A stretch of DNA of 19,479 nt from Candidatus Hermodarchaeota archaeon. GTDB taxonomy: Archaea > Asgardarchaeota > Hermodarchaeia > Hermodarchaeales > Hermodarchaeaceae. Shown piece after piece: positions 1 through 14,694 of this stretch. Within the stretch, counting starts at the first letter, position 1; every line of letters begins with the position of its first letter. Made by a program: the position numbers and the translations under genes. Under the pieces are notes generated by a model. The model did no database searches, was not told where the DNA came from, and worked only from the letters and a program-made list of their open reading frames with translations. The stretch covers positions 1 to 19,479 of the forward strand of contig JAEOTB010000017.1 in NCBI GenBank assembly GCA_016840065.1. The letters run 5' to 3'.

Positions 1-1541
1 AGTAGGGCGGGAAGGTCTTGAAATAGGTGTCAATGAATCGCTGGTGATCACCGAAAACAGTGCGCATCAGACCCGGCCATGGCTTCTTGATGACAAGATA
101 GCCACCCTCGTTCACACCGACTTCTTGCCCGGTCTCGTCAACGATTGCGGGTTCTATGCCAGGGAATGGAAGGGTACAGGAGCCAGGCTTGAGTGACACA
201 GCGCCAGGGATTGGAGTGATGACGACGCCGCCGGTTTCCGTCTGCCAGTATGTTAGTCGCCTGTAGGAGTTTTGCCTAGCAGGTATCGACAATAGGGCAG
301 CGGCTTTGTCCGACGACTTCGTAGTACCAGAGCCAGGCCTCGGGGTTGATTGGTTCGCCGACGGTTCCGAGGAGTTTGAGGCTGGTGAGGTCTCGTTTTC
401 TGACCCATTCGTCGCCGTGGCGCATGATGGCTCGGATGGCGGTGGGTGCGGTGTAGAATTGGTTTATCTTCCATTTTTCTACTACTGCCCAGAAGCGGTC
501 GGGTTCTGGGTAGGTGGGTACGCCTTCGAACATGACGCTGGTTGCGCCTGCGGCTAGGGGTCCGTAGACGATGTAGCTGTGGCCGGTGATCCATCCTATG
601 TCGGCGGTGCACCAGTAGATGTCTTCTTCTTGGTAGTCGAAGATGTACTTGAAGGTGGTCATGGTGAAGGTCATGTAGCCGCCGATGGTGTGGAGTACTC
701 CCTTGGGTTTGCCTGTTGAGCCGCTGGTGTAGAGGATGAAGAGGGTGTCTTCTGCGTCGAGTTGTTCGGGTTCGCATTTGTCTTGGACGTCTGGTTTTTC
801 TACTTCTTCGTGCCACCAGCTGTCTCTTTTTGCGGTCCAGTCTACTTCGATGCCGGTGCGTTTGACGACGATGCAGTGGCGTACGTTGGGGCAGCTCTTG
901 AGGGCTTTGTCTGCGTTGATTTTGAGTGGGATGGATTTTGTGCCGCGGTAGCTGCCGTCGCTTGTTATGACGCCGGTGCAATCGCTGTCAAGAATCCGGT
1001 CCTTAAGGGAATCGGCGCTGAAGCCTCCAAAAACCACCGAGTGGATGATGCCCAGGCGGGCGCAGGCAAGCACTGCGATGGCTAGCTCGGGGATCATGGG
1101 CATGTAGATGGCGATTCGGTCGCCTTTCTGGTAGCCGAATTTCTTGAGGACATTGGCGAATTTGTTGACCTCGTCGTAGAGCTGCTGGTAGGTGAAGGTG
1201 CGGCTCTCCTTGGGGTCGTTGCCCTCCCAGATGATGGCGATCTTGTCCTTGCGCTTGGTTTTGAGGTGGCGGTCTAGACATTGGTAGCTGGCGTTAATCT
1301 TGCCGCCTTTGAACCATGTGTGGCGGGCCTCTTTGGGGTCCCATGTGTGGATTGGTCCGGTCCATTTCTCGAACCAGTCGAGTTGTTCTGCTTGTTTTGC
1401 CCAGAATGCAGTTGGATCCCTGATTGACTCCTGATAGAGTTTCTGGAGTTCTTCTGGGCTTTTTATGTGAGCTTGTTTAGCGAAGGATTTGGATGGGTGG
1501 AAAACCCGTGCTTCCTTCGAGGTGATTTCAATCTTACTCAA
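1..1541 (-). CDS. acs: Acetyl-CoA synthetase (AMP-forming). Two exons: exon 1 is 1541-285 (419 codons) and exon 2 is 253 to <1 (continues beyond the window), separated by a putative 31-nt BHB intron
   Basis: Exon 1 has the ACS motifs [49 protein letters not shown] and [12 protein letters not shown]. My translation of 253-1 (minus) is [84 protein letters not shown], the expected ACS continuation with no stops. TTG start at 1541, with an in-frame TGA just upstream at 1550-1548. Confidence 0.95.
254..284 (-). other. Putative archaeal mRNA intron (31 nt) with a bulge-helix-bulge splice motif
   Basis: Minus-strand RNA: CUGCCCUAUU GUCG AU^A CCUG C UAGG CAAAACU CCUA CAGG CGAC UA^A C AUA CU GGCAG. 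Central 4-bp helix GUCG/CGAC, 3-nt bulges AUA and UAA on opposite strands, intron helix CCUG(C)UAGG/CCUACAGG, and exon-exon pairing UAU/AUA plus CUGCC/GGCAG after one U-C mismatch. Cleavage after the second bulge nucleotide on each side gives GUC GAU ACA UAC UGG CAG (VDTYWQ). Confidence 0.85.
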
Positions 1542-1844: not shown

Positions 1845-4800
1845 ATGGTTCCAGCTGCGAAAGGCGGTTCATCTTTAAAGCTTAAGTCTACTCTCTTTCA
1901 ACTTTTGGCAGACAAGTCATCCTATGGTATCCTTATCTTCAGGGGCGAGAAGGTGTTTTATGTCAACAAGCAATTATCAAAGATATCAGGATACACACTT
2001 AAGCAGTTGAGAGCCTGGAGCATACAAGACTTCATTTCGATGATCAACGAGGAGGATAGAGGCAAGGCTCTTGAGGTATACGGGGACTTGGTTGGAGGCA
2101 AATCTGTTTCGTATCATTATCAGTTTAGGTTTCCTCACAAGAAGAAGGGAATGCGCTGGGTTGACGGTACTGGCATCTTAGTGAAGGTTGACGAAGAGGC
2201 TTTTCTTCAGGTTAGGTTAATTGATATCACTGACCACAAGCAGTTGGAGATAACAGTTGAAGAGTCGGAGGCGAAGTATCGGTCCTTTGTGGAGAACTTC
2301 CATGGTATTGCCTACCGCGCAATCATTGGTGGTGTTGTAGAATTTTTCCACGGTGATGTTGAAGAAATAACTGGCTACCATGAGGAGGACTTTGTGTCCG
2401 GTCGAGTGCTCTGGGATAAACTGATTCACCCAGATGATTGGGGGCGTATTGAAGCTAATTGGGAGCGGATTGGGTCTGAACCAGGCGCATTTAGTGACAG
2501 GGAGTATCGCATTATCCGAAAGGATGGAGCTATTCGGTGGATTCGTGATTTCGTTAGGAATATCTGTGACGCGAGTGGTAAGCCAGCCAATGTAGAGGGC
2601 GTACTCTACGATATCACGGAGCGGAAACGGATGGAGGAAGCTTTTCACTCGCTCGTTGAGTACTCTTTACAGGGATTAGTAATCATTCAGGGTGACCGCA
2701 TTGTCTTTACAAATACTGCCTTTGCTGAAACCCTCGGTTATACTGTAGAGGAGATACTAGCGTGGTCGCCTAAACAGGTGAGAGCTTATGTCCACCCTGA
2801 TGACCAATCTCTTGTTTGGGGGCGATTTGAGGCACGTCTTAAAGGTGAGCATCCTCCTAATAACTATGAATTCCGTGTTGTCTGTAAAGACAAGTCTGTG
2901 CGTTGGCTAGAAGTTTTCGCTCAACCCATCGAATACCAAGAGAAGCCTGCTGTTCAGGCATCCTACATTGACATAACTGAGCGAAAGCTAGCAGAAGAGG
3001 CTCAACGCGAGTCTGAAGCGAAATACCGTAGCCTCATGGAACAAACACAAGAAGGCATTGTCATCGGACAAACCCCACCCCCCCGCCTTATCTTTGCGAA
3101 TCCTGCGATGAGGACCATACTGGGCTATACTCCCGAGGAACTCACCACAATGCCCCCTGAAGCGTTATTAACGCTAATTCATCCAGATGATCGAGATATG
3201 TTCTTTGGACGTTTTGTAGATCGCATTACAGGAAAACCAGCCCCATCTCGATATGAGGTTAGAGGAATAAGAAAGGATGGAACGGTTCGTTGGATTGAAG
3301 TCTTCTCTCGTCGAATCCAATATGAGGGGCAGCCAGCAGCCCATGCCACCTTCGTTGACATCACTGAGCAAAAACTGGCGGAGAAGGCGCTGCAGGTCTC
3401 AGAAGCGAAGTACAGAGCAGTAATTGATCAGATGCAGGAAGGTCTTATAATCTTCCAAGATGAGCGAGTTGTTTTCGCTAATCCTGCTATAGAGAAAATT
3501 ACCGGATACACAGTAGAGGAGATTCTAGCTCTTCCCTCGACAATGCTCTGGGAAGGCATATACCTTGAGGACCGAGAGAAGGTTATGAGGTATTTCCAAG
3601 ATCGCTTTGCGGGTAAGGAGGTTCCATCCCACTACACGATTCGAATGATACGAAAGGATGAATCGGTCTATTGGGCAGAGTTGTCAGTTCAGGTCATTGA
3701 GTATTTAGGTAAGCCAGCGATACAGGCTAGTTATATCGACGTTTCTGACCGTAGGGAAGCAGAGTTAGCAGCTAAAGAATCAGAGAAGCGTTATAGAGAT
3801 CTTTTCGATCATGTTCCCATTGGGCTTTACATTACCTCACCTGATGGTCAAATCATCGATGCGAATCCAGCATTGGTGGAGGTGCTAGGCCATAAAGATA
3901 GGGAATCCCTCCTTGCTAGGAAGGCATCAGAGTTCTATGTTAATCCTGAGGTGCGGCAGCAATGGCTAGACCTTATGACTCATGAGGGTGTAGTCCGTGA
4001 TTTCGAGGCACAGTTCCAGCTACCTGATGGTCGCTTGATCTGGATTGTGAATAACGCAAGAGCCATCCTTGATAATAGCGGCAAAGTACTCTATAACGAA
4101 GGATCTATGGAGGACATCACAGAGCGAAAGATTGCCCAAGAAGGGCTTGCCGCTTCTGAGGCTAAGTTTAGGGCGTTGGTCGAAGAAACTTCGGACTGGG
4201 TCGTGGAACTGGATTCTGAGGGGAGGGTGACTTACTCGAATAACGCCATTGAAGGAGCTCTGGGTATCACTGCTGGCCAGATTCTTGGGCGTTCAATCTT
4301 TGAGTTCATGGTTGAAGAAGCTGGTCCGCCGGCTAAGGCAGCCTATAGCCAGTATGTTTTGAAAGGCAAACCCTTTGAGAACCTCGTGTACAGGTTCACT
4401 CATAGGACAGGTCAGATGATTATCCTTGAGGGAGGGGGACGCCCAGTCTTTGATGAACAGCACCGTGTAACTGGCTTTCGAGGGATTTTCCGGAACATAA
4501 CAGAACGTGTAGAAGCAGCTAGTGTAATTCGGGAATCTGAGGAGAAATACAGATACCTGGTGGAGCAATCATTGCAGGGGCTCGCAATAATCCAGGGAGA
4601 TCCTCCTCGAATAGTCTTTGCGAATCCTGCTTTTGCAGAGATGCTAGGCTATGCTCCTGACCAGTTAATCGCTTTCTCGGCCGAGTCGGTTAGAAGAATC
4701 ATCCCAGCTGAGGATTATCCAATGCTGATAGAACGATTCGGTGAACTGATTTCTGGTGCACCTTCATTCCCACGTATCATACGTATGGTGAGAAAGGATG

Positions 4801-6341
4801 AAGATATCCGATTAGTGCAGGTCTTTGGACACCGCATTGAATACGAAGGTCAACCAGCACTTCAACTATATGGGATTGATGCCACAGAACATAAGGAAGT
4901 CGAAACGGAATATCGCACATTGGTGGAAGCTACACCTGACGCTATCATTTTGACTGATTTGCAGGGCATTATCCTAATGGTAAATGAGCAGACCGTGCAG
5001 TTCTATGGCTATACTCGCGAAGAACTCATAGGAATGAATTCCTTTAATCTTGTTGTAAAAGAGGAACAGCAACGCGCAGCGGGAGAGTTACAGAGGCTGC
5101 TCCAGGGTAAAAGTGTAAGTGCTGTTGAATTCAAAGCCCTTAGAAAGGATGGGACCATGGTAGCCATAGAGCTAAACGCAACACCGATTATGGATCCAGA
5201 TGGGACGCCACGGGCTTTTCTTACAATTGGAAGAGACATCAGTGAACGTGAAGCAACATTTGCTATTATTCGAGAACGCGAGGAACAATATCGTTTGCTC
5301 TATGAGAACACAGTAGCTGGCATCTTTCTTGTCGACAACCAAGGAGAAATAATGATGTGTAACGCCTACGGTGCAGAACTCTTTGGATACAAACCATCTG
5401 AACTTGCAGGAACGAAGTTTGAGTCGTTACTTCATCCAGAGGATAAAGAAAGAATTCTACAGCGTTTTCAAGAGGGAATTGAACAGGGTAGAACGCTTGT
5501 AAGTGGGATAGAGGGAATAGGACTTCGAAAGGATGGATCCACTTTCCATTATCATGTAACCAGTACAGCTCTCGGAAAGGATGGCATGGTCGATGGCTTT
5601 CAATCCGTAATTCTTGATATCACTTCGATAAAAGAGACTCAGGCTGAGCTTCAGGCGGAACAGGACCGCATCGAGTTCCTCAATGACCTGATGGTCCATG
5701 ACCTCATCAATGTCAACCAAGGTATCCTTTCAGTGCTAGAACTTCAATTGAGAGAACCCACCCTCCCCGAAGGCTTCAGGGAACTCGTAGAGCTTGCGCT
5801 TTCACAGGTCACTCGAAGCACAGCCCTTATCGCTAGGATGAGACGACTTTCCCGTATTAAAACAGAGATTCCCCAATTTGAGAAAAGGGATATTGCAGTG
5901 ACCCTTCATTCTGCTGTAGAGTCCTTGGAGGAGGTTATTCCAGATAAGACCTTGCAGCTGGAGACTAATGTAGAAGCAGGAAAGTATATCGTGCTAGCTG
6001 ATTCTCTTCTCTATGACCTCTTCTATAATCTAATCTATCGCGCCTTGAAGATTGACGAGCAGAAACAGGTTAGAGTGAATCTCATGGTAGGTCCTGCCAA
6101 GTCCAAAGGGTTTCTCCAGATTCTTTACAAGGATTATGTCCCCACAAGTTCAGCTGAAGAAGGCGTCCATCTTGTTGGTAGAGTTACTGGCGATACAGCA
6201 GCACTTGACCTGGGAATCAGTCTCACTCTAGTTGAGCGCATCGTAATGAGATATGGAGGGAAAGTCTGGGTTCAGGATCCCACCCCTGATAGCCCAGCAG
6301 AGGGCACAATCCTCATTATCCTCCTTCCCAAACCAAACTAA
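1845..6341 (+). CDS. Multi-PAS (about 10 PAS/PAC domains) sensor protein with a C-terminal degenerate HisKA/HATPase module
   Basis: Ten repeats that start with (Y/F)RxLVE-like helices and end in DITERK-like motifs. The C-terminus has an H-box (LMVHDLIN), an N-box-like FYNLIYRALK and LVERIVMRYGGKVWV. No transmembrane helix is evident. Confidence 0.92.
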   Translation: MVPAAKGGSSLKLKSTLFQLLADKSSYGILIFRGEKVFYVNKQLSKISGYTLKQLRAWSIQDFISMINEEDRGKALEVYGDLVGGKSVSYHYQFRFPHKKKGMRWVDGTGILVKVDEEAFLQVRLIDITDHKQLEITVEESEAKYRSFVENFHGIAYRAIIGGVVEFFHGDVEEITGYHEEDFVSGRVLWDKLIHPDDWGRIEANWERIGSEPGAFSDREYRIIRKDGAIRWIRDFVRNICDASGKPANVEGVLYDITERKRMEEAFHSLVEYSLQGLVIIQGDRIVFTNTAFAETLGYTVEEILAWSPKQVRAYVHPDDQSLVWGRFEARLKGEHPPNNYEFRVVCKDKSVRWLEVFAQPIEYQEKPAVQASYIDITERKLAEEAQRESEAKYRSLMEQTQEGIVIGQTPPPRLIFANPAMRTILGYTPEELTTMPPEALLTLIHPDDRDMFFGRFVDRITGKPAPSRYEVRGIRKDGTVRWIEVFSRRIQYEGQPAAHATFVDITEQKLAEKALQVSEAKYRAVIDQMQEGLIIFQDERVVFANPAIEKITGYTVEEILALPSTMLWEGIYLEDREKVMRYFQDRFAGKEVPSHYTIRMIRKDESVYWAELSVQVIEYLGKPAIQASYIDVSDRREAELAAKESEKRYRDLFDHVPIGLYITSPDGQIIDANPALVEVLGHKDRESLLARKASEFYVNPEVRQQWLDLMTHEGVVRDFEAQFQLPDGRLIWIVNNARAILDNSGKVLYNEGSMEDITERKIAQEGLAASEAKFRALVEETSDWVVELDSEGRVTYSNNAIEGALGITAGQILGRSIFEFMVEEAGPPAKAAYSQYVLKGKPFENLVYRFTHRTGQMIILEGGGRPVFDEQHRVTGFRGIFRNITERVEAASVIRESEEKYRYLVEQSLQGLAIIQGDPPRIVFANPAFAEMLGYAPDQLIAFSAESVRRIIPAEDYPMLIERFGELISGAPSFPRIIRMVRKDEDIRLVQVFGHRIEYEGQPALQLYGIDATEHKEVETEYRTLVEATPDAIILTDLQGIILMVNEQTVQFYGYTREELIGMNSFNLVVKEEQQRAAGELQRLLQGKSVSAVEFKALRKDGTMVAIELNATPIMDPDGTPRAFLTIGRDISEREATFAIIREREEQYRLLYENTVAGIFLVDNQGEIMMCNAYGAELFGYKPSELAGTKFESLLHPEDKERILQRFQEGIEQGRTLVSGIEGIGLRKDGSTFHYHVTSTALGKDGMVDGFQSVILDITSIKETQAELQAEQDRIEFLNDLMVHDLINVNQGILSVLELQLREPTLPEGFRELVELALSQVTRSTALIARMRRLSRIKTEIPQFEKRDIAVTLHSAVESLEEVIPDKTLQLETNVEAGKYIVLADSLLYDLFYNLIYRALKIDEQKQVRVNLMVGPAKSKGFLQILYKDYVPTSSAEEGVHLVGRVTGDTAALDLGISLTLVERIVMRYGGKVWVQDPTPDSPAEGTILIILLPKPN

Positions 6342-6403: not shown

Positions 6404-6604
6404 CTATCTTGAGCGCTGGCGGCGAGCAGCAAACCAGCACAAAAGAGTGAGTGCGAAGAAGAAGACTCCAAGAACCACAAACAACTCACCCAGAAACATA
6501 TTACCAATGAAATAGAAGGCACCACCCAGAAGTAGGATGGAAAACCCTATGACAACAAACAAGGAAACGACAAGAAGTGAAGGACGTGAAGAAGTTGAAG
6601 ACAC
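6404..6604 (-). CDS. Small hypothetical membrane protein (two transmembrane helices, basic C-terminal tail)
   Basis: Two hydrophobic stretches followed by ARRQRSR. GGAGATG RBS-like sequence lies 8 nt before the GTG start. Overlaps the possible 5' end of the opposite-strand gene. Confidence 0.5.
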   Translation of the reverse strand: MSSTSSRPSLLVVSLFVVIGFSILLLGGAFYFIGNMFLGELFVVLGVFFFALTLLCWFAARRQRSR

Positions 6605-7157
6605 TGGTAGACCATCTCCGATGGACCTGATTATTTACATCGTCATAGCTATTTTAGTTACGGTTATAGTATATTTTCTACCTGACATCTTCTTCTCCTT
6701 CTATCTCGCCATCCCAACCGCATATATCTCCTCTGTGATGCTCAATGGTTTGGGAGTGCCAGCACCTTTTGTAGTGGACTGGGCGCAGGCTGGAGTCTTT
6801 GTCGGAAACTACCAGATTATCAAAGACTGTACAGGGGTGCAGGTGATTGCTGTCTTTGCTGGCCTGATCTTTCCCTTACCTCGAGGGACCTGGCGGAGGA
6901 AAGGGTTGTCGATGGCTGTTGTGTCTGTAATACTATTTGTTGCGAATATCCTCCGGGTCGTCTATGAGATATGGCTGGTAGAGATGGGAATTCTGCCTTG
7001 GGAGTTGGCTCATTATCCAATGTCCTTTGTGCTCGGGGTTGCGGGGGTCTTCGTCCTCTGCCTTGTGGCAATTTGGCTACTACCCGGGTTCATCGAAACG
7101 TTTGAGGATATGCTCTACTATCTTTTCCCCCCGAAAGATAAGGGAGCTACTGGGTAG
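6549..7157 (+). CDS. Archaeosortase/exosortase family transpeptidase (start uncertain: 6537, 6549 or 6621)
   Basis: Multi-pass membrane protein with the family's Cys-Arg-His pattern: IIKDCTG, ANILRV, LAHY. Confidence 0.8.
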   Translation: MTTNKETTRSEGREEVEDTGRPSPMDLIIYIVIAILVTVIVYFLPDIFFSFYLAIPTAYISSVMLNGLGVPAPFVVDWAQAGVFVGNYQIIKDCTGVQVIAVFAGLIFPLPRGTWRRKGLSMAVVSVILFVANILRVVYEIWLVEMGILPWELAHYPMSFVLGVAGVFVLCLVAIWLLPGFIETFEDMLYYLFPPKDKGATG

Positions 7158-8200: not shown

Positions 8201-8887
8201 TCATTCTCTAGTGAATTCTTTGTAGGGTTCTTTCTCTGAGAAGAGGAGGCAACGATTGTTTACAAGGTGGCTTCTTACATAGATTAGGCGTATCAGGTGG
8301 AGAAGTGTTCCTTTGTCTTCTATCTCTCGAACTTCAATTACACCATCAGCGGAGAAGCGAAGTGCAGCCACGATTTCAGTGTCGTGAACTCCCTCTTCAA
8401 GTAAATAGATGCCAGTTATTTTGAGATTCTTGGCCCGGGCGCTGAGTACTTGGTAGAACTTCAGGACCGCGGTGGGTTCCGCGTAGGACATGAGGGTGGA
8501 TAGGCTGTCGATACAGAGATGTCCGTTTTTCAGGTCTGACATGGTTTGGAGGAGCGTGAGGCTGATTAGGTTCAAGTTAAAGAGGCTTTGGAAGGCGATT
8601 GGTTCATCTGAGGGTTGTGATGTAACACAGGAGACACCGTCAACGACTCTGAGCTGTTTTGCCTTTACCTTTCCACAGAAACCTATGGTCGTCTCCCTAA
8701 TTTGCTTGGGGGTCCACACGGTTGTTGCATAGATACCAGCTTCGTTCTGTTTTAGGCGGCTACTGAGATATCGAATCGCGAAATGAGCTTTCACAGTGCC
8801 GGGAGGACCAATCAGGAGTAGTTGAGAACCTCGAGGGAACTCTAGAGTGTTAGCGGGTGTGAAGCTCACATGAACGAGATCGCTCAA
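8201..8887 (-). CDS. RAD55/KaiC-superfamily ATPase-like protein with degenerate Walker A
   Basis: LLLIGPPGTVKA (GKT replaced), LCIDSLSTL, LEEGVHD, ADGVIE. Confidence 0.8.
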   Translation of the reverse strand: MSDLVHVSFTPANTLEFPRGSQLLLIGPPGTVKAHFAIRYLSSRLKQNEAGIYATTVWTPKQIRETTIGFCGKVKAKQLRVVDGVSCVTSQPSDEPIAFQSLFNLNLISLTLLQTMSDLKNGHLCIDSLSTLMSYAEPTAVLKFYQVLSARAKNLKITGIYLLEEGVHDTEIVAALRFSADGVIEVREIEDKGTLLHLIRLIYVRSHLVNNRCLLFSEKEPYKEFTRE

Positions 8888-8890
8888 TAT

Positions 8891-9685
8891 CTAATCTCCT
8901 TTTAGCTGAAACCCCTTTTCGTCCAGAATCATCTCCTTCCATGAGGTTAGTGGACTGGCCCCAATGAGGCTTAAGATTCGAAGTTCACGGCGCAGGGCAC
9001 AACCATCCTCATCTATTATCCGAGTCCTTATCGTTCCTTGGACAAGTGAACGTAGGCTGTTAATCATTGCTACGTCGTGGGCGCCCTCTTCTAATACAAA
9101 GATGACTCTACTACCTTGACGAAGAATTCGATGGGCTAGAACGTGAATGAAGTTGCGAATTCTTTCCTTCATTTGTGAAGCTAGCGTCAAACCAGAAACA
9201 GAATCGACGATGACCAATGAACTAGGGGAGAGGAGTTGGACCTGGTTCATTATTACTAGACTGACCTTGTTGATGTCTGAAGGGTTATTGATTCGGTCTA
9301 TGGCATATTCATCTTTGCGCATCCCAATTGCCCAGCTATAGGCGTCGATGAACTTGATTTTTTGACCTATTGGATCATCTCCTTGAAGTAGTCCAACTCC
9401 AAGGGCGTGGGCTAGAATGTTTGTAGGTGTACTCTCGGTGGTAAGATAGAGGACTTCACATCCCTCGCGTATTGTATCTAATGCTAGCTGGAGACAGAAA
9501 CTGGTCTTACCGCTACCCGGAGGACCGACCAGGAGAAGACTTGTTCCTTGAGGTAAGCCCTCTTTTAGAAGTGTATTCAACACCACGTCCGATGCCCCAA
9601 AGAGGTCTTGGGATACGCCTAGAAGATGATTGTTCTGTGAAAACGAATAAGTCTTTGGGAAATCTTCAGGTGAAAAAAAATTCAC
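8891..9685 (-). CDS. RAD55/KaiC-superfamily ATPase
   Basis: GLPQGTSLLLVGPPGSGKT (Walker A), YLTTES, FIDAYSW, VIVDSVS (Walker B), LEEGAHD. Confidence 0.88.
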   Translation of the reverse strand: MNFFSPEDFPKTYSFSQNNHLLGVSQDLFGASDVVLNTLLKEGLPQGTSLLLVGPPGSGKTSFCLQLALDTIREGCEVLYLTTESTPTNILAHALGVGLLQGDDPIGQKIKFIDAYSWAIGMRKDEYAIDRINNPSDINKVSLVIMNQVQLLSPSSLVIVDSVSGLTLASQMKERIRNFIHVLAHRILRQGSRVIFVLEEGAHDVAMINSLRSLVQGTIRTRIIDEDGCALRRELRILSLIGASPLTSWKEMILDEKGFQLKGD

Positions 9686-9765
9686 ACTCCTGAGAATAAC
9701 CTGACCTACTTTAAAGGGAGGAAGATACCAATACTAGCTGGACAACGAGATTTTGGAGGATTACA

Positions 9766-10512
9766 GTGGTAACCTCGAAAAGAACTAAATCAGGAATTCC
9801 AGGGCTTGATGAGGCCCTTCATGGAGGCTTCCCTGTTGGTAGCGTCATCCTAGTCAGTGGCGGACCTGGGACTGGCAAATCAATCCTAATGAACCAGTTC
9901 CTTGTTAAAGGGGCTCTAGAGATGAATGAGCCTGGGGTCCTTGTGTCGATGGAGGAGCCCTTGGAATCAACATACCAGAATATGAGCATGTTCGGTTGGG
10001 ACCTAGAAGTACTACAGAAGCAGAAATCACTTGCATTGATTGATGCCTCACCGATGATTGAGCAGGATCGTGTTGTGATGAAGCCTGCTCATCCAGTTTT
10101 AGGTCGTGAGACATTCACAATGGAGTCTCTTCTATCCCTGATTCACAGGGAGATTCGTCGTGTAAAAGCAAAGCGGATAGCCATTGACTCTATCACAACG
10201 CTTACCTTGCAGCATGAGGATTTGTTCCGTATTCGACATGATCTGCTTCAGCTGGTGCGGTCTCTTCATAAAACTAAGGCCACTTGCTTGATTGCCGTTG
10301 AGAGTCCCGGAGATTCAATGATTGGTCGATTCGGAGTGGAAGGGTTTCTGGTGGATGGGGCCTTGATGATGAAACTAGTAAGCAAGGGCGAAGTTAGAAT
10401 GCGTACAATAGAAATCGTCAAGATGCGAGGCACCAGCCATGTTATGAATCCCCTTTTACTTATCATCAGTGATAAGGGGATTGAGGTTTCTGACCTGCCT
10501 CCCATCAGCTAG
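9766..10512 (+). CDS. Single-domain KaiC-like ATPase
   Basis: SGIPGLDEALHGGFP, GGPGTGKS, SMEE, IAIDSIT and EIVKMRGT (arginine finger). GGAGG RBS before the GTG start. Confidence 0.92.
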   Translation: MVTSKRTKSGIPGLDEALHGGFPVGSVILVSGGPGTGKSILMNQFLVKGALEMNEPGVLVSMEEPLESTYQNMSMFGWDLEVLQKQKSLALIDASPMIEQDRVVMKPAHPVLGRETFTMESLLSLIHREIRRVKAKRIAIDSITTLTLQHEDLFRIRHDLLQLVRSLHKTKATCLIAVESPGDSMIGRFGVEGFLVDGALMMKLVSKGEVRMRTIEIVKMRGTSHVMNPLLLIISDKGIEVSDLPPIS

Positions 10513-10636
10513 CTTCATTGAATCTCTTGTTGAAACTGCATAAATTAGAGTTTTATCTCCCCCTAGAAATCTTTCTAAGTTAACTTTATGTAGAATGAAG
10601 TTGTCTTCTAATGTGTGAGAGCGGGGTCGTGAACAC

Positions 10637-12058
10637 TTGAACTTACCTAGAGAAATCCCAGAGTTCTTGAATCGCCAACATGGCCAAACTCTTCTAATCA
10701 AGGGTAGAACAGGCACAGGCAAAACCACTTTTGCTCTTTCCCTTTTCGCAGAACTAATGAGAGCGTTCCCTGAACGGTTTCAAAAGAAGAATTTCCTCTA
10801 CCTTTCTTCCCGAGTTGATACTCCAAGTCTAGAAACCCAATTTCCTTGGATCAAGGAGATACTTTCCTCTGAGAACATTGTCGACGCAATCCCCACTGCT
10901 GTGCATGATTCGGAATCATCAATTTTCTCCGATGAACTCACCTTCATCAGCGCCGTAAATGACAGGCTGCTATCCCTAGAACCTTGTGTTTGTGTAATTG
11001 ACTCCTTTGATGCCATCGTAGAAGCTACCCAGTCTGATCCTCAGCGGCTCGTTGTGGCACTCAGTCACTTGAGTGCTCCGACAAAGGCAAAGATTGTCCT
11101 CATTCAAGAGGGCGACCACGATAGCCCCCTTGACCACATCGCAGATAGTATTATCGTTCTAACCAAGACAATGACTGAGGGTAAACTTTGGCGAAGCATT
11201 CGTATTGATAAACTTCGTGGAACCCGCATTCAGAAGGGAGTGCAAGGCTTTACCCTTTTTGACAATCGTTTCCAACTTCTTCCACATTATGATGCGGAAC
11301 AAACACGTCGCCCCCCAGCCTTTGAGGTCATCCCTCATAGCGCTGGTAAGTTCTCGTCAGGTATAGAGAAGCTGGATGAAATCATCGGACATTTCCGGCG
11401 AGGAAGTACAATCTTCCTAGACATTGGCAGGGGAGTACAAAATGAGGTAACGAACACTCTTGTCTTGAACTTCATTGCTAACTTCGTACTTCAAGGAGGC
11501 GGCGTAGTCATGGTTCCCCCCAACAAGCTCAGTTTTCGTCGGCTAAAATCAGCCGCCCTTCGCTATGGTTTTGTTGATCAATTGAATACAAGACTCCGCC
11601 TTTTCGTGAGTGCAATATCAGAACTTAGTACATCAAGTAGTAGAGCTGAACTTGGTGAACCTTACTACAAACCAATTGCTTCCCGTGAAAGCAAGGACCT
11701 TGAAAATGCCTGGATTAGGGTTCCTGAAGAGCTTCGAAGCCAAGACTGTACCAATATATTGAATATCGTAGGTTTTGGCTGGCTACAATCACGTCTCGGT
11801 TTGAAGGACCTGCCTCAATGGGCTACTCGTATAGCAAACGACACTGCAAGAGAGAGTAACCTTAGCATAGTCATCGGCTATAGCAGCACCGCAGAAATCA
11901 ACAAATACCTGGCAGACCTCTCCGAAGTGCATATTTCTTTATCAATAAAGGCTGGTGCGACAATTTTAAGGGCTATTAATCCCCCCACAGCTCAGTACTG
12001 CATCTTCCTTTCTGAAGATGGAGGTAAAACAAGCATTGGCTTCAGAGAAATCGTCTAA
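10637..12058 (+). CDS. GvpD-like tandem KaiC/RecA-fold P-loop protein
   Basis: N-terminal LPREIPEFL...TLLIKGRTGTGKTTFAL typical of GvpD-type P-loop domains, VIDSFDA and IDKLRG. The second domain starts FSSGIEKLDEIIG and has a degenerate Walker A. Confidence 0.82.
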   Translation: MNLPREIPEFLNRQHGQTLLIKGRTGTGKTTFALSLFAELMRAFPERFQKKNFLYLSSRVDTPSLETQFPWIKEILSSENIVDAIPTAVHDSESSIFSDELTFISAVNDRLLSLEPCVCVIDSFDAIVEATQSDPQRLVVALSHLSAPTKAKIVLIQEGDHDSPLDHIADSIIVLTKTMTEGKLWRSIRIDKLRGTRIQKGVQGFTLFDNRFQLLPHYDAEQTRRPPAFEVIPHSAGKFSSGIEKLDEIIGHFRRGSTIFLDIGRGVQNEVTNTLVLNFIANFVLQGGGVVMVPPNKLSFRRLKSAALRYGFVDQLNTRLRLFVSAISELSTSSSRAELGEPYYKPIASRESKDLENAWIRVPEELRSQDCTNILNIVGFGWLQSRLGLKDLPQWATRIANDTARESNLSIVIGYSSTAEINKYLADLSEVHISLSIKAGATILRAINPPTAQYCIFLSEDGGKTSIGFREIV

Positions 12059-12422
12059 ACAAGTCAAAGTACTCCTGGCAGATGATTCACGAATCTTCCT
12101 TCGCGCCGCTCAAATCCTACTAAGTGAACACTATCAAGTCGAAATTGCTTATGATGGACAAGAAGCACTCGATAAGATACAAGAAAACCCACCTGATGTT
12201 TTTATTGTCGACTTGGTCTTACCTAAGATTAGTGGTACCCAATTAATCCCCCAAGTCAAAGAGAAATTTCCTGACCTCATTATCATAGCCCTTACAGCAA
12301 TCGACGATGACGAGACCGTCCGGGAGGTCCTGGCTCTTGGAGCCCACCACTACCTAATCAAAGGTGCACTCACTGGAGACGAAATCTATCAGACAGTTGA
12401 GCGTCTCCTCGCCTCTAAGTAA
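12036..12422 (+). CDS. Stand-alone response regulator receiver (CheY-like)
   Basis: VLLADD, phospho-acceptor in FIVDLVLP, IIALTA and YLIK. TTG at 12036 follows GGAGGT (12020-12025); alternative ATG at 12018. Overlaps the end of the GvpD-like gene. Confidence 0.9.
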   Translation: MASEKSSKQVKVLLADDSRIFLRAAQILLSEHYQVEIAYDGQEALDKIQENPPDVFIVDLVLPKISGTQLIPQVKEKFPDLIIIALTAIDDDETVREVLALGAHHYLIKGALTGDEIYQTVERLLASK

Positions 12423-12434
12423 CTATAACCTGTT

Positions 12435-12821
12435 CTACAGGTCTTCAACCTTACGACCAGTCTTACCCAAATACTCCTCAATCGCCTTATGGAGCCCGTC
12501 AGCAGCAAGATTACTACAATGCATCTTAATCGGCGGTAAGCCCTCAAGAGCTTCAGCGATATCTTTACGTGTAATCTTAAAGGCTTCTTTCAAGGTTTTA
12601 CCTTTTGCTAGCTCTGTTAGCATACTGCTTGTGGCGATGGCTGCTGCGCAACCAAAGGTTTTGAAGCGGATGTCTTCGATGACATCATCCTTTACCTTGA
12701 TATAGATCCAGATAAGGTCACCACAGGTTGGGTTTCCAACCTTACCAATGGCATCGGCATCAGACATCTCGCCCATATTTCGTGGGTTTTGGAAATGGTC
12801 AATGACTGTATCACTATACAT
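12435..12821 (-). CDS. iscU: Fe-S cluster assembly scaffold IscU (NifU N-terminal type)
   Basis: DHFQNPRNMG, GNPTCGD, FKTFGCAAAIA and LPPIKMHCS. Confidence 0.96.
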   Translation of the reverse strand: MYSDTVIDHFQNPRNMGEMSDADAIGKVGNPTCGDLIWIYIKVKDDVIEDIRFKTFGCAAAIATSSMLTELAKGKTLKEAFKITRKDIAEALEGLPPIKMHCSNLAADGLHKAIEEYLGKTGRKVEDL

Positions 12822-12837
12822 CTTTTATTTTCATCTC

Positions 12838-14007
12838 CTAACTTGGTGGATAGAGGGGTGACATCTCTCGTAGACGCCCAATAATGGGAGGTAACACCTC
12901 GATGAACCAGTCAATATGGTTTTCGGTGTTATCCCGCCCAAGGGTTAATTGAAGCGCACCGTGAGCCTCTGCTTCGTCAACCCCCATTGATAAGAGAACA
13001 TGAGAGGGTTCTAGGGTTCTAGAGGTGCAGGCTGAGCTTGTTGCAACAAGGAAGCCTTGGAAGCTTAAGTGGAGGGTGATAGCTTCACCCTCGATGAAAC
13101 TGAACCTGATATTAGCGTTATTAGGTAGGCGGTCGGTTGGGTGGCCATTAAGATAGGTGTGTTCCATCTTGCCTATAATTCCGTTGATGAGGCGGTCTCG
13201 TAGCCCTGTGAGATGTCGGCTGTTGGCAGCGAGCTCGTCGGCTGCAATTTCAGCGGCGATTCCCATCCCGACAATTCCTGATACATTTTCTGAACCAGAG
13301 CGTAGCCCCATCTCTTGTCCCCCACCTAGAAGGATTGGCTGGATTGAAGTCCCTCGCCGGATTACTAGGGCACCCACACCCCTTGGACCATAGAGGTCGT
13401 TGGAGGAGAGGGTCATTAGAGAAGCTCCTACATCCGGGAGATTGATGGGAACTTGTCCAGTACTTGCCACTGCATCTAGGTGGAGAGGTATCTTCGCGTC
13501 CTGGGCAATATCTGATATTTCTTGGATTGGTTGGATTGTTCCTACTTCGTTGTTTGCATGCTGGATTGAGAGAAGAATCGTCTGATCGGTTATCGCTTCT
13601 TTTAGGGCTTCAAGCTTGAGGACACCGTGTTTGTCAACTGGTACCCTTGTTACTTCGAATCCCTGTTTTACTAGGAATTTGAGGGGATTGAGGATGCTTA
13701 GGTGCTCGACCTCGCTTGTGATGATGTGGTTGCCCTTGCGGCGGTTCCGATAGGCAAATCCGATTAGTGCGAGGTTGTTGGCTTCTGTTGCACCACTTGT
13801 GAAGACGATCTTGTCTTTAAGGTCCGCGCCTAAGAGTTTTACGATTTGCATTCTTGCATTGGCTACTGCTTTGGCTGCTTGCCGCCCTGCGAAGTGAACT
13901 GAGGAAGGATTTCCGTAAAACTCTTGAAAATAGGGCAGCATTCCCTTGAGAACCCGTTTATCCACTGGGTTGCCTGCAGCATGGTTCAGGTTGACTCTTT
14001 TTACCAT
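12838..14007 (-). CDS. iscS: IscS/NifS-family protein with Asp in place of the PLP-binding Lys (Archaeoglobus-type)
   Basis: YGNPSS, FTSGATEANN, HANNEVGTIQP, RSGSEN and the catalytic loop TSSACTS. SSNDLYGP replaces SxHKxxGP. Start at ATG 14007 (MVKRV), or 14040. Confidence 0.92.
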   Translation of the reverse strand: MVKRVNLNHAAGNPVDKRVLKGMLPYFQEFYGNPSSVHFAGRQAAKAVANARMQIVKLLGADLKDKIVFTSGATEANNLALIGFAYRNRRKGNHIITSEVEHLSILNPLKFLVKQGFEVTRVPVDKHGVLKLEALKEAITDQTILLSIQHANNEVGTIQPIQEISDIAQDAKIPLHLDAVASTGQVPINLPDVGASLMTLSSNDLYGPRGVGALVIRRGTSIQPILLGGGQEMGLRSGSENVSGIVGMGIAAEIAADELAANSRHLTGLRDRLINGIIGKMEHTYLNGHPTDRLPNNANIRFSFIEGEAITLHLSFQGFLVATSSACTSRTLEPSHVLLSMGVDEAEAHGALQLTLGRDNTENHIDWFIEVLPPIIGRLREMSPLYPPS

Positions 14008-14042
14008 TATTTCAGCACCTTCTCGGAATCCTTTGATCATTC

Positions 14043-14405
14043 TTAGAAGACCAGTAAACCATCAGACTTCAGCGCTAGGTCGTTAAGCGTTGCTGCTCCA
14101 ACAACCTTTGCGCCTTCAATGTAGCCGCCTCTATCTAGACCGAGAAGCTGGGTGCTTTGGTCACACACCATCAACTTTACCCCCGCTTCAATGGCTTGGT
14201 CTATTACCTCTTTTAGGGGAGGATAGTTGCCTATCTTGATTTTCTCCGCTTCTCCCTTCTTCACTACTTTTACTCCATGAATCATGAAGTATATAGTGGC
14301 ATCTATATCCATCATCTTCGCTGTGGTTGCGAGTATGAAGGGGGCGTAGAGGCGTTCTGGTGTTTCGGGTCCAGCGGTCAGAAGATATACTAGGTTCTTG
14401 GTCAT
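14043..14405 (-). CDS. DsrE/DsrF-family sulfur carrier protein
   Basis: PERLYAPFILATTA, IYFMIHGV, GVKLMVCDQS (conserved Cys) and VVGAATL. Confidence 0.85.
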   Translation of the reverse strand: MTKNLVYLLTAGPETPERLYAPFILATTAKMMDIDATIYFMIHGVKVVKKGEAEKIKIGNYPPLKEVIDQAIEAGVKLMVCDQSTQLLGLDRGGYIEGAKVVGAATLNDLALKSDGLLVF

Positions 14406-14412
14406 TTTCGTT

Positions 14413-14676
14413 TCACCTTTCGGTCTTTTGGATTAGGAAGCGAATGAATTCGTCGGACTTTTCGATTACTAGAATCTTGTTTCCAGTTCTTTCTGCCCAG
14501 CGAGTTATGTCCTCCTCGGAAGCAGGGTCGTCGGCTAAGAGTTCGATTATCTCATCGGGTTTGGCTTCAAGGATAGCTTGCCGGGTCTTGTAGACTGGAA
14601 TCGGGCAAAACATGCCCCGTGTGTCAATTGTACAACAAGGTTTTTGGTCTGTGCTACTGGAGGGTTCTTGTTTCAT
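14413..14676 (-). CDS. tusA: TusA/SirA-family sulfurtransferase
   Basis: IDTRGMFCPIP and LLADDPASEEDITRWA. ATG at 14676 preceded by GGGAGG. Confidence 0.9.
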   Translation of the reverse strand: MKQEPSSSTDQKPCCTIDTRGMFCPIPVYKTRQAILEAKPDEIIELLADDPASEEDITRWAERTGNKILVIEKSDEFIRFLIQKTER

Positions 14677-14694
14677 TTTTGGTACGCCTCCCAA

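Follow-up and report, generated by a model that had tools for sequence, protein, structure and literature searches.

Is the acetate-CoA ligase gene (acs) at the edge of this contig a dead gene, or is its mRNA repaired by the machinery that splices archaeal tRNAs? The window, i.e. the whole stretch of DNA analysed here (19,479 nts), is contig C105 of the metagenome-assembled genome G000, where acs runs on the minus strand from position 1541 to the contig end. The first-pass annotation had described a 31-nt insert at 254–284 (minus strand) which shifts the frame and brings in an in-frame TAG, and the same 31-mer was found there. The truncated 421-aa product expected without splicing was also retrieved, the frame ending at TAG 278–276; it lacks what follows in the AMP-binding motif, as well as the entire C-terminal part. 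The organization of the gene is as follows:

285–1541, minus strand: acs exon 1, 419 codons, the last one being the Asp of the AMP-binding motif (PRK00174 positions 4–413)
254–284, minus strand: predicted 31-nt BHB-type intron, frame-shifting, with an in-frame stop
276–278, minus strand: in-frame TAG ending the unspliced 421-aa product
1–253, minus strand: first 84 codons of acs exon 2, cut by the contig end (about 235 codons further in homologues)

Removal of the insert leaves a stop-free acs frame of 503 codons up to the contig end. By profile search, the two halves adjoin without gap on the acetate-CoA ligase profile PRK00174 (4–413 and 413–494), and comparison with the Salmonella protein places the first residue of exon 2 at T412 of Salmonella Acs. 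Excision at the cuts given by the BHB rule restores D-T-Y-W-Q-T-E of the AMP-binding motif, so that the motif repair proposed earlier was reproduced, with continuity on PRK00174 regained. On another contig, the same genome has a divergent paralogue of the Acs family which is intact (C104:3013–4854, 643 bits). The rest of the window carries a gene, transcribed divergently from acs, for a 1498-aa sensor histidine kinase with multiple PAS domains (1845–6341, plus strand), an archaeosortase-like gene (6537–7157, plus strand), four clustered KaiC/RecA-like ATPase genes with a response regulator (8201–12422) and a TusA-DsrE-cysteine desulfurase-NifU sulfur-relay cluster (12435–14694, minus strand).

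The predicted fold of the insert and its flanks is composed of the following elements:

287–290, minus strand: central helix, 5′ strand (exon 1), 4 bp
256–259, minus strand: central helix, 3′ strand (intron)
284–286, minus strand: first bulge, of the strict 3-nt form, with a cut expected between 285 and 284 (cut rule from PMC2738675)
253–255, minus strand: second bulge, which widens to an internal loop, with a cut expected between 254 and 253
260–283, minus strand: intron hairpin of 4 bp, 1-nt bulge, 4 bp and 7-nt loop; the loop varies and the C113 copy has one compensatory change, U-A to A-U
242–251, minus strand: exon-2 arms of the exon-exon helices, with partners at 292–294 and 296–300

Five registers of a 31-nt excision restore the acs motif by homology, and only one of these five (cuts 285/284 and 254/253) combines a 4/4 central helix with the intron stem. 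It is in this register that the borders predicted from fold and from homology coincide, as had been claimed. At random coding positions, a 4/4 helix together with a 4-bp stem is reached with p = 0.0005; when the best of five registers is taken, a helix of at least 3/4 is reached with p = 0.016; with the hairpin taken as given, the 4/4 helix with the acs exon end has p ~0.009. The insert folds with z = −3.4, none of 200 shuffles folding equally well. Pairing probabilities reached 0.84–0.89 for the central helix (290–287 with 259–256) and 1.0 for the intron stem in contexts of 40–200 nts, flank length being immaterial.

The central helix, the first bulge and the intron stem of the BHB fold initially drawn were thus recovered, but the short exon helix beside the second bulge is absent from the minimum-energy structure (−18.0 kcal/mol for the initial fold versus −18.4 kcal/mol with an open internal loop). 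Because this helix is 0.4 kcal/mol less stable than the open loop, the acs motif as modelled is a relaxed BHB of the bulge-helix-loop type, not a strict one. The BHB intron features present here are a 4-bp central helix, a bulge and an internal loop, predicted cuts which restore the product, and EndA and RtcB in the host.

Copies of the acs insert in relatives and selection on the gene

We found an insert at the same acs codon in four assemblies of one genus: C105 and C113 (both from G000), G001 and G003. Of 400 Asgard genomes searched with a gapped pattern, 3 have it, and these belong to the same genus as G000; 396 other Asgard genomes are without it. It was missing from the 12 sister-genus genomes, whose sequence was inspected, and from the other homologues fetched, all uninterrupted, and a pattern scan of metagenome contigs gave no match. 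No joined acs of G000's genus occurred among the best 120 protein matches; the closest named acs relatives belong to Ca. Hermodarchaeota, followed by Thorarchaeota and other Asgard archaea, and G000 is accordingly a presumed member of Hermodarchaeia. The four intron-bearing copies form one clade in the tree (support 94/91, slightly below the tool's support mark) and, because of this grouping, the acs intron fits a single gain, in the ancestor of G000's genus.

Related acs copies were aligned, a check proposed earlier. The insert is kept at the site and all 16 pairs (16/16) are kept in the three alignable copies, with one compensatory double change and a loop free to vary, but covariation is not significant with n = 3 and pairing in the G001 copy is weak. 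The G001 insert is 30 nt long, unrelated in sequence to the other copies and interrupted by two in-frame stops. It restores D-T-Y-W only in a register moved by one base, where the helix is 3/4 (A.G mismatch), the stem has 9 bp and the exon helix 3 bp; its central helix is out-competed in the predicted ensemble. In these models, G001 is the weakest of the acs intron copies.

The G000 assembly amounts to 2.59 Mb and is 84% complete and 5% contaminated. Identity to C105 is 87% for C113 and 82% for C95, the latter being collinear with C105 over 5 kb; C113 and C95 probably come from other organisms of the genus and would not be paralogues. The presence of three overlapping acs pieces (C95, C113 and C105) at 82–90% nucleotide identity suggests that congeneric organisms are mixed in the assembly.

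Selection was measured on six pairs of copies. For exon 2, dN/dS was 0.033–0.057 at dS 1.0–2.6, and for exon 1 it was 0.065–0.13, exon 2 being the more strongly constrained in 6/6 pairs. Exon 2 is free of further lesions.

Further BHB inserts, dnaG and cbf5

It had been suggested that other broken genes of this genome might carry introns. This was supported for EF-1alpha (twice), MoxR, Kbl, dnaG and a gene for a 535-aa protein, found by a motif-free census and a dnaG comparison. The census compared G000 with 2.17 Mb of the sister-genus genome G004, looking for clean insertions which disrupt the frames of orthologues; 1,309 coding ORFs had a match. Motif-first genome scans produced many chance matches at gene junctions, and only homology-backed cases were retained. 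The inserts are:

G000 C10:75524–75552 and 75365–75395: EF-1alpha, two inserts (29 and 31 nt) in GTPase switch regions, both introducing stops; single-copy gene in the assembly
G000 C10:39546–39571: MoxR, 26 nt, in Walker A
G000 C104:14835–14868: Kbl/BioF enzyme, 34 nt, in the PLP-lysine motif
G000 C85:7196–7226: 535-aa protein, 31 nt; no Pfam family (scanned via the G004 orthologue)
G000 C10:107682–107712: dnaG, split near codon 28
G004 L116:12651–12691: cbf5, 41 nt
G004 L178:11117–11145: Roadblock/LC7 protein, 29 nt
G004 L201:15791–15825: CoA-transferase subunit, 35 nt

In each of the ten top census inserts (7 in G000 and 3 in G004), a motif-restoring register gives a helix of at least 3/4 with a stem of 4 bp or more, for a null of 0.016 each. 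In total G000 holds at least 8 BHB inserts in 6 protein genes (acs and EF-1alpha both counted twice), nearly all in catalytic motifs; the analysis shows that this number is a lower bound, yet a handful rather than hundreds. Three kinds of census matches were discarded: a 69-nt match on C78, located upstream of the rpS19e start, an HdrA-MvhD match reflecting fusion versus fission, and shifts of 1–2 nt. Separately, a 31-nt BHB-shaped hairpin was noticed at G000 C10:114656–114686, and near 2464 of C74 (minus strand) a one-base frameshift without insert, an error or a true lesion, lies close to the end of a 473-aa orthologue.

The distribution of these inserts varied within the genus. The MoxR insert is present in G000 and G003 and absent from G002; that of Kbl is present in G000 and in G001, which has a second one, and absent from G003; those of EF-1alpha were seen in G000 only. 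A search of sequencing runs for the EF-1alpha region listed none of RNA. When G000 and G004 were tested for shared introns, only dnaG remained.

dnaG is split in 18 of the 18 family genomes holding the gene, and the BHB is kept in all four copies inspected at base level. Among about 40 database DnaG proteins of the family, all but one lack the true N-terminus. The exceptional one lies on a 1524-nt JGI contig (Ga0395754_008471, dataset 3300036486) which starts ~100 nt ahead of the start codon, and its sequence has precisely the junction expected from G000 dnaG. A protein identical to it at 285 of 286 positions (99.7%), on a 74-kb contig of another sample (dataset 3300042731), was called as two pieces, and from the distance between them a 28-nt insert is deduced. 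A spliced transcript beside its gene would look like this; the joined contig, which may be RNA or DNA, comes from a related species and concerns dnaG, not acs. It could also be DNA from an intronless allele.

The cbf5 gene of G000's genus is intact. In the sister genus it carries a 40–43-nt insert with the central helix kept in 12/12 genomes, at a site different from that of the crenarchaeal intron, and no joined Cbf5 of this genus was found in protein searches. G034, from another Asgard family, has a cbf5 intron in the catalytic Asp codon, which is the crenarchaeal intron site, as read at base level. Several genomes of Asgard families f7, f12, f15, f17 and f18 have cbf5 split at the catalytic Asp; outside the sister genus, such splits were read at base level for G034 and otherwise mostly from coordinates. 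In G005:C9 and G012:C30, cbf5 has an insertion of ~1.6 kb close to residue 196 which looks in-frame and may be an intein; the open frames measure ~900 aa.

Splicing machinery, alternative readings and known systems

G000 encodes RtcB (on C10) and two EndA paralogues (in the regions of C85:17046 and C10:100418), one of which shows the catalytic Tyr-His-Lys region. Two-subunit EndAs are the type which cleaves relaxed motifs and the cbf5 pre-mRNA (PMC2738675, PMC12397907), and the G000 paralogues would assemble into such an enzyme, with a substrate range extending to relaxed motifs. In the mechanism that we propose, the last bases of exon 1 would pair with the end of the insert to form the 4-bp helix between two bulges, the hetero-oligomeric EndA would cut after the second base of each bulge, and RtcB would join the exons, intact acetate-CoA ligase then being translated. 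The inserts would be tolerated insertions which a permissive EndA removes routinely; genomes would gain and lose them, and now and then one would be copied into another gene.

The BHB-type mRNA intron predicted in the first-pass annotation, one which EndA and RtcB could excise, is supported by its retention in four assemblies, by purifying selection on exon 2 and by the presence of the machinery genes. Judged from sequence, the acs insert is in all likelihood a functional tRNA-type mini-intron, spliced as a routine step shared with other mRNAs; for acs itself, we infer cleavage, ligation and the absence of a regulatory role. Very probably, the mRNAs of acs, EF-1alpha and DNA primase must be spliced.

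Because the insert is shared by four assemblies and exon 2 is under strong purifying selection, it is very unlikely that acs reflects an artefact or a pseudogene. An error of assembly or sequencing might be suspected in a metagenome-assembled genome with 5% contamination, but the four assemblies are independent and carry diverged insert sequences at the same codon, and its probability is practically negligible. As to a dead gene, in which a palindromic element would have inactivated acs and the BHB shape would be incidental, the second Acs-like gene could cover the function. This reading is nevertheless already largely refuted by the stronger constraint on an exon 2 without added lesions, by the same inserts in essential single-copy genes and by the 4/4 helix with the exon end, and we hold it to be extremely improbable.

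Ribosomes might also repair the message without RNA splicing, by programmed frameshift, read-through or a hop over the hairpin. Translational bypass operates in phage T4 gene 60 and in fungal mitochondrial byps, and the acs insert resembles byps in size and hairpin; moreover, in C105 and G003 the exon-2 frame crosses the insert without meeting a stop, and MoxR has a matched codon pair before the stop. However, identical take-off and landing codons occur in none of the four acs copies (a synonymous Thr pair in two only) and an exact codon match in only 1 of 16 inserts; the C113 insert has stops in all three frames, and the two in-frame stops of G001 add to this. Bypass would in addition leave the conserved exon-intron helix and the joined dnaG sequence unexplained, and appears very improbable. 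A dedicated on/off switch for acetate activation, the role initially claimed for the intron, is an added claim compatible with splicing: unspliced Acs would end within the AMP-binding motif, and copies separated by dS > 1 still have the intron. Yet because an intact Acs paralogue is present on C104 and the same intron type resides in constitutive housekeeping genes (EF-1alpha, dnaG, cbf5), the switch is unsupported. The lack of the acs intron in the sister genus, the fact that species of a single genus differ in whether they carry the introns of MoxR, Kbl and EF-1alpha, and a predicted fold which is independent of context and has no alternative state in three of the four acs copies speak in the same direction, and we consider such a switch unlikely.

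Routine splicing of a tRNA-type mini-intron, the reading retained for acs, has several relatives. In eukaryotes, IRE1 and RtcB splice the XBP1/HAC1 mRNA, a proven regulatory switch; this system likewise involves a short frame-shifting intron, a protein nuclease and a tRNA ligase, but the nuclease and the motif are different. The cbf5 pre-mRNA of Desulfurococcales and Sulfolobales contains a BHB intron (Watanabe 2002; Yoshinari 2006; Yokobori 2009, PMC2738675) which shares with the acs insert a short frame-breaking sequence in a catalytic motif, an unconventional BHB, a cut after the second bulge base, a hetero-oligomeric EndA and patchy gain and loss. The acs insert would function like this archaeal BHB intron but is not the cbf5 intron: it lies in another gene and phylum, and six genes of one genome are concerned instead of a lone case. 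An orthologous crenarchaeal intron was accordingly ruled out, the host gene being acs and G000 cbf5 being intact. A BHB intron carrying a homing endonuclease was also ruled out, the total being 31 nt and three LAGLIDADG_3 matches lying elsewhere in long ORFs, as was a group I/II self-splicing intron, given a single 24-nt hairpin versus a ribozyme core of some hundred bases.

Coding-region cases beyond cbf5 are described as only predicted (PMC2738675), and cbf5 is named as the only other archaeal mRNA case in the study of Haloferax HVO_1309, where a BHB site is located in the 5′ UTR (Schwarz 2020, PMC7714728). EndA acts on an mRNA there too, but the HVO_1309 site is outside the reading frame. 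Asgard archaea have many non-canonical tRNA introns, and their genomes typically encode two EndA paralogues (bioRxiv 10.1101/2023.11.21.568159; 10.64898/2026.10.13.758758). Motif, size range, enzymes and repeated independent gains are the same as here; the acs insert differs in lying in coding sequence, and the passages searched in these two reports cover tRNA introns only, without splicing shown in an Asgard cell. In the literature searched, most subscription journals being outside the search, we found no earlier report of Asgard or Bathyarchaeia mRNA introns, and confirmed coding-region splicing of archaeal mRNA is that of cbf5 only.

If acs, EF-1alpha and DnaG of an Asgard lineage need mRNA splicing, as they appear to, protein-catalysed mRNA splicing would be normal in close prokaryotic relatives of eukaryotes, which bears on the origin of RtcB-type mRNA splicing and of intron tolerance. 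Annotation breaks intron-bearing genes into fragments or gives them false N-termini, as in the ~40 DnaG entries, which distorts metabolic reconstructions. The RNAs being short and defined, the splicing question is directly testable with recombinant EndA.

Intron origin and T/G-poor tracts

The first EF-1alpha intron, found in G000 only, nearly duplicates the family-wide dnaG intron, and the exon hexamer in front of it is the same. By this resemblance, the dnaG intron is a copy source for EF-1alpha, i.e. a putative transposition between protein genes. In Thermoproteales, introns reportedly moved from one tRNA gene to another (Fujishima 2010). Both situations have in common that unrelated loci hold near-identical introns after one and the same short target sequence, and the difference is that protein genes are concerned here. 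No look-alike of the acs intron was found elsewhere in G000 or in G004.

Exon 1 of acs has a further peculiarity:

297–1001, minus strand: stretch of exon 1 with hardly any T/G in third codon positions, reaching to within a few codons of the intron

T/G-poor third positions extend over ~235 codons upstream of the acs intron in all four copies; third positions are normal downstream and in intronless relatives. G000 contains 27 such tracts (window 297–1001 and 26 other ORFs), several at contig ends. Tracts end at the P-loop of MCM (an intein follows), the P-loop of V-ATPase A, topoisomerase VI A and the Kbl site; several of these conserved motifs are known mobile-element sites. The tracts were absent before the EF-1alpha, MoxR, dnaG and cbf5 introns. 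As a guess, a T/G-poor tract would be the scar of one-sided gene conversion or of cDNA. A broader scenario, which we put forward tentatively and as somewhat doubtful, is that this Asgard family routinely splices the mRNAs of many genes, that mobile mini-introns are copied via an RNA intermediate (dnaG to EF-1alpha) and settle in catalytic motifs, and that repeated conversion leaves the one-sided T/G-poor scar upstream of acs, Kbl and intein-type sites. The tract at the Kbl site is present even in the intronless G003.
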